Of a stretch of 64,000 bases of DNA, positions 7,308 through 18,102 are shown piece after piece; within the stretch, counting starts at the first letter, position 1, and every line of letters starts with the position of its first letter. Source of the stretch: Escherichia coli (GTDB lineage Bacteria > Pseudomonadota > Gammaproteobacteria > Enterobacterales > Enterobacteriaceae); the NCBI RefSeq assembly GCF_003334315.1, contig NZ_QOWR01000012.1; one strand, 5' to 3'. Below the pieces are notes generated by a model that did not search any database, was not told the origin of the DNA, and was given only the letters and a program-made list of their open reading frames with translations. A program made the translations under genes and the position numbers.

Positions 7308-8012
7308 ATGGACAGATTCCCACGTTCTGATTCAATCGTACAACCCCGGGCTGGCTTGCAAACTTATATGGCGCAAGTCTATGGCTGGATGACCGTTGGC
7401 TTGTTGCTGACCGCATTTGTTGCCTGGTATGCGGCTAATTCCGCGGCCGTGATGGAGCTGTTGTTCACTAACCGTGTCTTTTTAATCGGTCTGATCATCG
7501 CGCAATTAGCATTGGTTATTGTGTTATCAGCGATGATTCAAAAGCTGAGCGCAGGTGTAACGACGATGCTCTTTATGCTTTATTCGGCGCTGACGGGTCT
7601 TACGCTTTCCAGTATATTCATTGTCTATACCGCTGCTTCTATCGCCAGTACTTTCGTCGTTACTGCCGGGATGTTCGGCGCAATGAGCCTGTACGGTTAC
7701 ACCACGAAGCGCGATTTAAGTGGCTTTGGCAATATGCTGTTTATGGCGTTAATCGGCATTGTGCTGGCATCGCTGGTCAACTTCTGGTTGAAAAGCGAAG
7801 CATTGATGTGGGCAGTTACCTACATCGGCGTGATTGTCTTTGTCGGATTGACGGCGTATGACACGCAGAAACTGAAAAATATGGGTGAGCAGATTGATAC
7901 CCGCGACACGTCGAACCTGCGCAAATATTCCATTCTTGGCGCGTTAACCTTGTATCTGGACTTCATCAACCTGTTCCTGATGTTGCTGCGAATTTTTGGC
8001 AACCGCCGTTAA
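7308..8012 (+). CDS. ybhL: BAX inhibitor-1 / YccA family inner-membrane protein YbhL
   Basis: ORF 7227-8012; likely start MDRFPRSDSIVQ (234 aa); seven hydrophobic segments. Confidence 0.88.
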   Translation: MDRFPRSDSIVQPRAGLQTYMAQVYGWMTVGLLLTAFVAWYAANSAAVMELLFTNRVFLIGLIIAQLALVIVLSAMIQKLSAGVTTMLFMLYSALTGLTLSSIFIVYTAASIASTFVVTAGMFGAMSLYGYTTKRDLSGFGNMLFMALIGIVLASLVNFWLKSEALMWAVTYIGVIVFVGLTAYDTQKLKNMGEQIDTRDTSNLRKYSILGALTLYLDFINLFLMLLRIFGNRR

Positions 8013-8031
8013 TTCTTTTTCACCATCAATA

Positions 8032-8059
8032 TCCCGGCCATGTGTCGGGATTTTTTTTC
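8032..8059 (+). terminator. Putative intrinsic terminator after ybhL
   Basis: Short GC stem (cccgg...tcggg) followed by a T8 run. Confidence 0.5.
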
Positions 8060-8216
8060 TTACTAAAAACGACACTTAACAAGTACCAGGTATAAAATAC
8101 GCCTTATGGCGAGCGGAAGCGTTTTCCGTATCCATAAATACAAAAGTATTTTGTATGCGTGGTTTTAAATTTATTGATGGTGAATATTAATATTTTTTCT
8201 AAGGACAACTAAAAGA

Positions 8217-8930
8217 ATGGAATCATACTCGCAAAACAGCAATAAATTAGATTTTCAGCACGAGGCCAGGATATTAAACGGTATATGGCTCATTACCGCT
8301 TTAGGTTTGGTGGCAACCGCAGGACTGGCCTGGGGAGCTAAGTATCTCGAAATTACGGCAACCAAATATGATTCACCACCAATGTATGTCGCCATAGGGT
8401 TATTATTACTTTGTATGTATGGCTTAAGTAAGGATATCAACAAGATAAATGCCGCCATCGCAGGCGTAATATATCTGTTTTTACTCTCTTTGGTGGCGAT
8501 TGTCGTTGCAAGTTTAGTTCCTGTATATGCCATTATCATCGTGTTCAGCACTGCGGGCGCGATGTTTTTAATCAGTATGCTGGCCGGTTTATTATTTAAT
8601 GTTGATCCTGGTTCTCACCGTTTTATCATTATGATGACGTTGACAGGGTTGGCCCTGGTAATCATCGTGAATGCGGCATTAATGAGTGAACGGCCCATTT
8701 GGGTAATAAGTTGCTTAATGATTGTGTTATGGTCAGGCATTATCTCGCATGGACGAAATAAGCTCCTTGAATTGGCGGGGAAATGCCATAGTGAAGAGTT
8801 GTGGAGTCCGGTTCGTTGCGCTTTTACAGGTGCATTAACACTCTATTACTATTTTATCGGCTTCTTTGGGATACTTGCCGCGATAGCTATAACGCTTGTC
8901 TGGCAAAGGCATACGCGTTTTTTTCATTAG
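8217..8930 (+). CDS. ybhM: Inner-membrane protein YbhM (BI-1-like)
   Basis: 237-aa polytopic membrane ORF adjacent to ybhL. Confidence 0.85.
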   Translation: MESYSQNSNKLDFQHEARILNGIWLITALGLVATAGLAWGAKYLEITATKYDSPPMYVAIGLLLLCMYGLSKDINKINAAIAGVIYLFLLSLVAIVVASLVPVYAIIIVFSTAGAMFLISMLAGLLFNVDPGSHRFIIMMTLTGLALVIIVNAALMSERPIWVISCLMIVLWSGIISHGRNKLLELAGKCHSEELWSPVRCAFTGALTLYYYFIGFFGILAAIAITLVWQRHTRFFH

Positions 8931-8965
8931 CCGTAAATGCACATACTAAAGAACTTAACTAAACT

Positions 8966-9922: not shown

Positions 9923-11163
9923 CAGGGTTTTACCCCCGTGTTTTCAGTTTCTACCCGATCCTGCGTTTCCATTGTCGGTTGTGCGGGCGGATCAACCTGC
10001 GCCAGACGTGGCGTGTGTGCCGGAAGCCAGCCAACCAGCGCCGGGAAGTGGCGTAAAAAGTGGAACGCCAGCACGCTTTTGGTCAGGTTCCACCAGGTGC
10101 GTTTGGGCAGCATGGTTTCATCCACCTGCTGACAATCTGCGGCGATAATGCCGTTCAGATTATCGCGCAGCGTCTGGTTAAAATTACGATCGTGGATGAT
10201 GACATTTGCTTCGAGATTCAGTGACAAACTGAGCGGATCGAGATTACTGGACCCTACTGTCGCCCAGTGATCGTCCATCAATGCTACTTTGCCGTGGAGC
10301 GGGCGGCGGCGGTACTCAAACACCTGAACGCCGCCTTTAACCAGATAGTTATACAGCAAGCGCGCGCCGACTCTGACAATCGGCATATCCGGTTCGCCCT
10401 GAATGATCAGTTTGATCCGCACCCCGCGGCGTGCCGCTTTACGCAAGGCGTGTAAAAATCGATAGCCGGGGAAGAAGTAGGCGTTGGCGATAATGACTTC
10501 CCGCCGCGCCTGAGTGAGCATTTTCAGATAGTGGCGTTCTATATCATCGCGGTGTTCTTCGTTATCGCGCCAGACCAGCAATACCTGCGCTTCTCCCGGC
10601 TGGCGATTTTCTTCCGCTTTGTGATGACGTCGCCACCAGCGTCGTGCCGCGCTCTGTCCAGGCAGGTTTTCCAGCTCAAACTGGAGAATATCTTCGACAA
10701 TCGGCCCTTCAAGGCGTACCGCGTAATCCTGTTTAGCCTCTGGACCGTAGCTGGACATATGCTCGGCGGAGTAATTCAGCCCGCCAATAAAGGCGATACG
10801 CGCGTCGATCACCACAATTTTGCGATGCATCCGGCGAAACACATTGGTGCGCATACCAAAAAGGCGAGGGCGGGGATCGTAGTAGCGAAATACCACGCCA
10901 GCTGCCGTCAGTTCATTGACAAACTCATCGCTGAGATCCGGCGAACCGTAGCCATCCAGCAAGACTTCCGCTTTAACCCCGCGTTGCGCTGCTGCCAGTA
11001 GTGCCGCATGCAGCTGTTTGCCGACGTCATCCTCAAACCAGATAAACGTTTCAAGAATGATGCGTTCTTGTGCCTCGCCAATCGCCTTAAACACCGCGGG
11101 ATAATATTGCTCGCCGTTTTCCAGCAACTCGATCTTATTGCCTTCACGCCAGCTACATTTCAT
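9922..11163 (-). CDS. clsB: Cardiolipin synthase B (phospholipase D superfamily)
   Basis: 413 aa; two HxK(x)4D (HKD) motifs visible ([16 protein letters not shown]). Confidence 0.93.
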
Positions 11164-11921
11164 AAATGAATCTCCGCACTTAAAGGGGCATGATCAGAAA
11201 GGTGTCGCCATGTCTGCAGCGGCAACGCGGTTGGCGCGCTGGCGCTGGCATTTTTGACGTAGATCCTGTCCAGACGTAGTAGAGGAAATTGCACCGGAAA
11301 CGTGCGCGCCGGGCGTCCGTGGGCGCGGGTAAATATCTCATCCAGTCCGGCCTGCACTTTTAACGGATGATTAGCTTTTTGCCGCCAGTCATTGAAATCA
11401 CCCGCCACCAATACCGGTTCGCCGTCCGGTAGCTCATTCACCCATTCGGCGAGCATCGCAAGCTGCGCCTGACGGTGCGCCTCACGCAGGCCCAGATGTA
11501 CGCACATCACATGAATCGCTTTTCCGGTCATCGGCGGCACAATGCGGCAGTAGAGCACGCCGCGCTTTTCCGCACCATCGACCGAAACATCGCGATTCTC
11601 ATAATGTTCAATGGGATAACGCGACAGTACGGCGTTGCCGTGATGCCCTTCCGGGTATACGGCATTGCGACCGTAGGCAAAATCGCTCCACATGGTGTCG
11701 GCGAGAAACTCGTAGTGCGAGGTATCGGGCCAGTTTTCCACATGCAGCGGATGAACTTCGTGCGCGCCCATCACTTCCTGCAGGCAAACAATATCGGCGC
11801 TGACGGTACGCACGGCATCGCGAAGTTCCGGCAAAATGAAGCGTCGGTTAAACGCGGTAAAGCCTTTGTGAATGTTGATGGTGAGCACCTTGAACGAAAA
11901 TTGTTGTGTTTGATCGGGCAT
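11160..11921 (-). CDS. ybhP: Endonuclease/exonuclease/phosphatase family protein YbhP
   Basis: 253-aa ORF; 4-nt overlap with clsB. Confidence 0.88.
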
Positions 11922-12053
11922 AATTTTCCTGTCTTTGCCTCTTATCTCATTGAAATAGTGTAGTCGGCGTCACAAAAAGGTGCGGTCTTACGGAATTTTC
12001 CGTAAAGTTCGGTACTCTGAGTAAGTAGAGATAAATTCTTCAGGAGAGAAGCC

Positions 12054-12464
12054 ATGAAGTGGCAACAACGTGTTCGTGTCGCAACGGGTCTAAGTTGCTG
12101 GCAGATTATGTTGCATTTACTGGTAGTGGCGCTGCTGGTGGTGGGCTGGATGAGTAAGACTCTGGTTCACGTCGGCGTGGGATTATGCGCACTGTATTGT
12201 GTCACGGTAGTGATGATGCTGGTGTTTCAGCGCCACCCCGAGCAACGCTGGCGTGAGGTGGCAGACGTGCTGGAAGAGCTGACCACGACCTGGTATTTTG
12301 GCGCAGCGCTGATTGTGCTGTGGCTGTTGTCCCGCGTTCTGGAAAACAACTTTTTGCTGGCAATTGCAGGGCTGGCAATCCTTGCCGGCCCGGCGGTAGT
12401 GTCTTTGCTGGCGAAAGATAAGAAGTTACATCACCTTACGTCTAAACATCGCGTACGCCGCTGA
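12054..12464 (+). CDS. ybhQ: Inner-membrane protein YbhQ
   Basis: 136-aa hydrophobic ORF. Confidence 0.8.
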
Positions 12465-18080: not shown

Positions 18081-18102
18081 CTTAATCAAATGATTGATTA
18101 AG
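18081..18102. promoter_or_regulatory. Perfect 9-bp-arm palindrome, candidate CecR (TetR-type) operator
   Basis: CTTAATCAAatgaTTGATTAAG, 14 nt upstream of the cecR start codon. Confidence 0.5.

Follow-up and report, generated by a model that had tools for sequence, protein, structure and literature searches.

A palindrome upstream of Escherichia coli ybhM as a probable by-product of A/T tracts in promoter DNA reported to bind H-NS

Introduction

Does the short perfect palindrome that precedes ybhM in Escherichia coli mark the operator of a regulator, or is it a symmetry of the kind that AT-rich promoter DNA acquires by chance? The question is raised by ATACAAAAgtaTTTTGTAT (equivalently ATACAAAAGTATTTTGTAT), which was read directly at positions 8138–8156 of the 64,000-nucleotide stretch of DNA analysed here (the window). 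The neighbours of the locus in the window are moaE and ybhL, followed after ybhM by ybhN and clsB on the minus strand. The palindrome sequence itself is absent from the literature that was searched, in which a single, unrelated primer was the only hit. We consider that the palindrome is probably a by-product of A/T-tract composition in promoter DNA that is bound by H-NS, where the tract possibly plays a generic UP-like or H-NS-related role.

Sequence and setting of the palindrome

The arms of the palindrome (8138–8145 and 8149–8156) show perfect dyad symmetry in an 8+3+8 arrangement that cannot be extended, A8137 being opposed to G8157. The ATG of ybhM is at 8217 and 60 nt therefore separate the palindrome from the start codon, which begins about 61 nt on. 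The initial annotation had described perfect 8-bp arms with a 3-nt spacer some 60 nt before ybhM, in the AT-rich promoter region of a gene for a BAX-inhibitor-like membrane protein, and this description is borne out: the arms and their spacing are as given, the setting is a promoter region and the product belongs to the BAX-inhibitor-1/YccA family. The setting can be stated more closely, with a mapped ybhM start on each side of the palindrome. The ybhL–ybhM spacer is 204 bp in length with a GC content of 33%, and the 100 bp from 8131, around the palindrome, are the AT maximum among the 100-bp stretches of the window (75% AT). The stretch 7990–8260 is identical (100%) to strain CP53 and differs from the K-12 allele. 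The features of the locus are collected in Table 1.

Table 1. Features of the ybhL–ybhM region (window positions) and alleles of the palindrome
Feature	Position	Strand	Description
ybhL	7308..8012	+	Conserved BI-1/YccA-family gene, upstream of ybhM
ybhL intrinsic terminator	8031..8060	+	Stem-loop 8031–8051 followed by a T run
Distal promoter P1	8069..8106	+	−35 ACGACA 8069–8074; −10 TAAAAT 8093–8098 or TATAAA 8091–8096; start A8106
H-NS motif match TCCATAAATA	8131..8140	+	8/10; overlaps first 3 nt of left arm
Palindrome	8138..8156	.	ATACAAAA-gta-TTTTGTAT; perfect 8-bp arms and 3-nt spacer in the window strain
A4-GTA-T4 core AAAAGTATTTT	8142..8152	+	Invariant in the alignment of 8 E. coli and Escherichia sp. 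E1V33
Proximal promoter P2	8164..8202	+	−35-like TTTAAA 8164–8169; 18-bp spacer; −10 TAATAT 8188–8193; start about 8200–8202
H-NS motif match TCAATAAATT	8168..8177	-	9/10; on the other side of the palindrome
ybhM	8217..8930	+	237 aa; BAX-inhibitor-1/YccA-family membrane protein
Allele ATACAAAA (perfect)			Window strain, O157-like strain, H7, NT1F25, Escherichia sp. E1V33
Allele ATGCAAAA (7/8)			K-12 BW2952, ST131, E10; G at 8140
Allele AAACAAAA			O111:H8; A at 8139
Allele ATGTAAAA-ata-TTTTGTAT			E. albertii; left arm and spacer ATGTAAAAata

Promoters and start sites

In E. coli K-12 W3110 the ybhL–ybhM spacer carries an RpoD-holoenzyme peak in genomic SELEX, with a predicted promoter ACGACA-16-TATAAA (Shimada et al., 2014; PMC3946193); our promoter scan of the window returned ACGACA-18-TAAAAT for P1. 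Cappable-seq of O157:H7 EDL933 gave ybhM leaders of 113 and 18 nt, and a leader of 15 nt is recorded for K-12 in RegulonDB v10.5 (both listed in PMC10469882, Table S5); ybhM is unlisted in the other published start-site supplements that were checked. These distances, which belong to EDL933 and K-12 and hence to strains other than that of the window, were mapped via an O157-like locus (L007) and a K-12 locus (L012). The P1 start mapped in this way is the A at 8106, in agreement with the predicted promoter, and the P2 hexamers were assigned by direct reading of the sequence. The −10 hexamer of P2 is polymorphic at 8192, being TAATAT in the window and K-12 and TAATGT in ST131 and E10.

The palindrome is thus observed between the two ybhM starts, spanning +33 to +51 of the P1 transcript and, in the O157-like locus, −62 to −44 of P2. 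Its centre, T460 of that locus, is exactly at −53 when the EDL933 start with its 18-nt leader is used and at −55 when the K-12 start site is used. From the position of the centre at −53 of the proximal promoter, it follows that the A4-N3-T4 core occupies the place of the distal subsite of an UP element.

Chance expectation

Across the whole window there were 17 palindromes whose arms pair perfectly over 8 bp or more around a spacer of 0–6 nt, compared with 8.0 ± 3.1 in dinucleotide shuffles, and the excess consists mostly of GC-rich terminator hairpins. In shuffles of the 204-bp ybhL–ybhM spacer, at least one palindrome of this kind was present in 5.7% (P = 0.057), and 37% (0.37) held a perfect inverted repeat of 8 bp when any distance between the arms was allowed. 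The palindrome at 8138–8156 is statistically unremarkable and stands at the chance level for such AT-rich DNA. About eight such palindromes are to be expected in 64 kb. Of the two readings put forward initially, the evidence favours the chance AT-rich symmetry over the operator.

A separate palindrome, TTACGGAATTTTCCGTAA at 11988–12005 (8-bp arms, 2-nt spacer), lies between the divergent ORFs 11160–11921 (−) and 12054–12464 (+), which by gene order we take to be ybhP and ybhQ.

Conservation and the case for an operator

Matches to a query of the spacer were obtained in 4673 of 5426 complete E. coli genomes, the other 753 giving none, and shorter queries of the palindrome region matched in 4646. 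Among the latter, the 30-mer 8131–8160 is exact in 1916 genomes, has one mismatch in 2729 and has two mismatches in 1, so that all but one of the 4646 carry it with at most one mismatch; across the species, conservation of the spacer as a whole is comparable. The strains with one mismatch include XL1-Blue and TG1, as expected of K-12 derivatives. A 45-mer identical to the window occurs in 1325 genomes and the corresponding K-12 45-mer, with ATGCAAAA, in 2307. The perfect palindrome is a minority allele, present in at most 41% of the E. coli genomes that bear the region, and an imperfect form is found in at least half of them (about 59%), K-12 included.

Whether the symmetry is perfect hinges on one polymorphic position, 8140 (A or G), and other alleles (O111:H8) break the symmetry at arm position 2. 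When nine Escherichia sequences were aligned, 19 of the 204 spacer columns were variable; for the palindrome 2 of 19 columns were variable, compared with 1.8 expected. Judged from this alignment, the palindrome is free of extra constraint and as variable as the rest of the spacer. The variation is confined to the outer left arm. The central 13 nt, CAAAAGTATTTTG, are invariant in the nine sequences, and E. albertii, too, retains the right arm TTTTGTAT without change.

These alleles bear directly on the proposal that the palindrome is the operator of a dimeric transcription factor, which from −53 of P2 would act in the manner of a class I activator or from +33 to +51 of P1 would block elongation. 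We regard this as distinctly unlikely. The palindrome does resemble the operators of dimeric regulators, for example those of the TetR family, in its dyad, 8-bp arms, short spacer and location in a promoter region; the arms are perfect in the window strain, the site is flanked by two mapped starts and the inner 13 nt are invariant in the E. coli sample. It differs from such operators in that the symmetry varies within the species, being 7/8 in K-12 and at least half of the region-bearing genomes and broken at position 2 elsewhere. The initial annotation, which had suggested the operator, had itself looked to conservation of the symmetry among close relatives; this is poor, and the operator reading fails that test. 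Conservation of the palindrome is, moreover, no better than that of its flanks, and its occurrence in an AT-rich spacer is at chance level. There is no regulator gene adjoining ybhL or ybhM that might encode a cognate protein, and the 64-kb window contains no second copy of the palindrome when up to three mismatches are allowed. Cross-genus or deeper footprinting of the palindrome was ruled out because ybhM is confined to Escherichia, with only decayed remnants in E. marmotae and E. albertii, and an operator therefore has no regulon-level or cross-genus footprint in its favour. To our knowledge, none of the sites of CRP, LexA, Fur, Fis, IHF, Nac/LysR (T-N11-A), AcrR, HipB, EvgA, CpxR and OmpR fits the palindrome convincingly. 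Since the central 13 nt are invariant and the right arm is kept in E. albertii, a protein could conceivably recognize a shorter or imperfect dyad.

CecR, a TetR-family protein encoded about 9 kb away, was considered as a regulator and rejected, its own upstream palindrome CTTAATCAAATGATTGATTAAG being unrelated. As a possible operator, the candidate CecR site at 18081–18102, in the divergent cecR–rhlE spacer, is far more convincing than the palindrome at 8138–8156.

Likeness to UP elements and to H-NS-bound regions

An A-tract followed by a T-tract is intrinsically self-complementary. The self-complementarity of the palindrome would then arise from A4-GTA-T4 together with a chance match of the adjoining two or three bases in the window strain. 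The role of the core, if any, would be a generic one that requires no dyad: contact with RNA polymerase through its alpha C-terminal domain (alpha-CTD), participation in an H-NS tract, or both. The drift of the outer arm bases could be accounted for in the same way, because neither an alpha-CTD nor an H-NS role needs dyad symmetry.

Through the narrow minor groove of its A4/T4 core, the palindrome could contact the alpha-CTD and so provide P2 with an UP-like distal subsite. The distal subsite for the alpha-CTD is centred near −53 and is typically an A-tract followed by a T-tract (PMC3326320). The core of the palindrome has the same order of tracts and the same centre, the subsite being taken here to occupy −57 to −47 of a sigma-70 promoter, and it is separated by 11 nt from the −35-like hexamer TTTAAA downstream. 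For the distal subsite, Estrem et al. in 1998 reportedly gave the consensus AAAWWTWTTTT. The core AAAAGTATTTT agrees with this string at 10 of 11 positions, and matches of at least 10/11 occur at only about 15 places in the 64 kb. The likeness to the UP elements of Estrem, Ross and Gourse is incomplete: in the strict register counted from the EDL933 start the agreement falls to 8/11, the value of 10/11 requiring either a 1-nt shift or counting from the −35-like TTTAAA, and an A-rich proximal subsite is lacking, positions 8153–8163 reading GTATGCGTGGT. Dependence on alpha is putative here, and the UP-like reading of the core is post hoc, the resemblance having been seen after the fact.

The palindrome could also be part of a tract on which H-NS nucleates and spreads to silence ybhM. 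An H-NS site is marked in the ybhL–ybhM spacer of K-12 W3110 by genomic SELEX, which is an in vitro method and does not place the site at base resolution (PMC3946193). The high-affinity H-NS motif is tCGATAAATT (Lang et al., 2007; PMC2094087), and two matches to it, of 8/10 and 9/10, flank the palindrome in DNA that has T-A steps and contains the AT maximum of the window. In these respects, as in the reported SELEX binding and in the lineage-specific, low-GC gene that follows, the region resembles those on which H-NS nucleates and silences horizontally acquired AT-rich genes (PMC2094087). The 10-bp motif is, by contrast, not matched by the palindrome itself, which is overlapped solely by the match on its left side, for 3 nt, and H-NS needs no dyad. 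From these resemblances we infer the possible roles of alpha and of H-NS; the placement between the two starts and the distribution of the alleles are direct observations.

Taken as a whole, the palindrome comes closest in its working to a common UP-like A/T tract in an H-NS-silenced promoter region, and it may be one. On present evidence it is not a discrete functional element, and it is nothing new in kind. The most it would do is to lengthen by one the list of natural promoters that have an UP-like A/T tract in an H-NS-silenced, lineage-specific gene. The useful outcome is a negative one, in that a textbook-looking palindrome before a gene whose function is unknown can be disregarded, as even K-12, the reference strain, lacks the perfect form. 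For studies of ybhM, the two start sites, the reported H-NS binding and the Escherichia-only islet in which the gene is found offer a better start than the palindrome.

A still plainer account would deny the palindrome any role at all, UP-like or H-NS-related, and treat it as neutral sequence in a decaying accessory locus. The shuffle statistics permit this, the ybhM locus is often deleted, interrupted or decayed, and even the −10 hexamer of P2 varies (A8192G in ST131 and E10). We nevertheless think it unlikely, as the exact placement at −53 and the order of A-tract then T-tract resemble functional distal UP subsites, H-NS binding is reported for the spacer and AT tracts in regions of this kind are rarely inert for H-NS.

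The transcribed leader

As the palindrome is transcribed from P1, it might act as an RNA hairpin within the 111-nt P1 leader, affecting the stability of the mRNA or the translation of, or after, a mini-ORF that ends with the TAA at 8135–8137. We hold this to be very improbable. As with the hairpins and attenuators of other 5′ leaders, its place is within the distal transcript's leader, where it could form a stem of 8 bp with a 3-nt loop, and this hairpin is present in the minimum-free-energy fold of the leader. On the plus strand, the A-to-G change of K-12 and the A-to-G and C-to-U changes of E. albertii all give G-U pairs, so that the stem is formally kept. Three wobble-compatible transitions are also compatible with chance (about 1 in 8 by our own estimate rather than by computation, or 1 in 4 on the assumption of only a single change at position 8140). 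Across the alleles the stem changes comprise these three, all one-sided, and one that is disruptive, and a compensatory double change was not seen among them. The stem differs from those of known leader elements in being almost entirely A-U, with a marginal stability of −4.1 kcal/mol that is equalled in 12 of 200 shuffles, and there is no significant fold signal (hairpin, z = −1.84; whole leader, z = −1.39). The O111:H8 allele reaches only −1.6 kcal/mol, E. albertii folds differently and P2 transcripts do not contain the hairpin. A search against Rfam gave no match at E < 0.1.

A terminator or attenuator was excluded: the stem is not GC-rich and is not followed by a U-run, for which reason it is not a terminator, and a terminator scan around the palindrome returned that of ybhL only. 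A coding explanation, in which a 20-codon ORF at 8106–8168 runs over the palindrome, was also rejected; a 1-nt indel in K-12, O157, H7 and E1V33 introduces a stop before the palindrome, and E. albertii lacks the ATG.

The P1 start that gives the 113-nt leader of EDL933 is the A of an ATG and could thus begin a leaderless mini-ORF (L012:129–161 in K-12). This mini-ORF has ten codons in K-12, O157, H7 and E1V33, reading M-[D/A/R]-E-R-K-[R/S/C]-F-[L/P]-Y-P-stop, with its TAA just 5′ of the palindrome, and 20 codons in the window strain owing to a 1-nt indel; four alleles (−, A, C and G) occur at site 8109/8110. One might imagine that the invariant inner dyad CAAAAGTATTTTG is a regulator site, or else a functional hairpin of the leader that is linked to the leaderless mini-ORF, and that it switches ybhM between its distal and proximal promoters. 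We give this idea very little credence; if it were true, the roughly 41% of strains with the perfect-arm allele would carry the site in a stronger form.

The statistically unusual symmetry of the ybhL–ybhM spacer is a different one from the 8138–8156 palindrome, namely a perfect 13-bp inverted repeat, a length that none of 1500 shuffles of the spacer (0/1500) attained. Its arms, TTCACCATCAATA and TATTGATGGTGAA, are at 8018–8030 and 8172–8184, and the similarity extends to 20 nt at 85%. The first arm is in the 3′ UTR of ybhL just before the terminator and the second is in the P1 leader of ybhM, inside the P2 spacer. The arrangement recalls that of a small RNA derived from a 3′ UTR, with a seed followed by a terminator and placed opposite the leader of a neighbouring gene. 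It departs from such a system in that none of the five arm substitutions among the nine Escherichia sequences is compensated and that pairing is abolished in the O157-type allele.

The ybhM islet

The GC content of ybhM is 36–44% in 300-bp windows, compared with about 55% in its neighbours. In a scan for YbhM with one genome per species, only Escherichia loci and two probable contaminants were recovered. The latter (L003 and L004) are short contigs in assemblies of a Collinsella sp. (MAG) and a member of the Acidobacteriia that carry ybhM DNA of the Escherichia type, with protein identities of 89–100%, and probably reflect assembly contamination. For comparison beyond E. coli, YbhL was used as the anchor, and the islet was compared across five loci (L002, L005, L017, L019 and L020). 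In the Salmonella enterica and Citrobacter loci examined ybhM is absent, and ybhL is directly followed by the convergent ybhN. In E. marmotae (L017) ybhM has decayed to a remnant of roughly 540 bp, in E. albertii it is internally deleted with a different gene upstream, and in Escherichia sp. MOD1-EC7003 an additional BI-1 paralogue lies between ybhL and ybhM and the palindrome is absent. As far as the compared sequences allow it to be delimited, ybhM and its upstream region (about 8060–8965) make up an AT-rich islet that lies between ybhL and ybhN, occurs in Escherichia only and has often been lost or interrupted, and ybhM is a dispensable, young accessory gene.

Extra BI-1 paralogues in tandem and other small genes are found at the islet in Escherichia sp. 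MOD1-EC7003 and E. albertii. Insertion sequences have also reached it. In strain WCHEC4533 an IS200C insertion (L011:944–1402) separates the terminator region of ybhL from the promoter region of ybhM, and the only annotation for ybhM is that of a shortened hypothetical protein; in HB101/RR1 the ybhM locus has been hit by IS5 (PMC5379014). In the remnant of E. marmotae (L017:3805–3850), the octamer TTTGTATG from the region of the right arm of the palindrome (8150–8157) appears to be joined to an identical octamer at 8411–8418 within the ybhM coding region, a junction which suggests a microhomology-mediated deletion.
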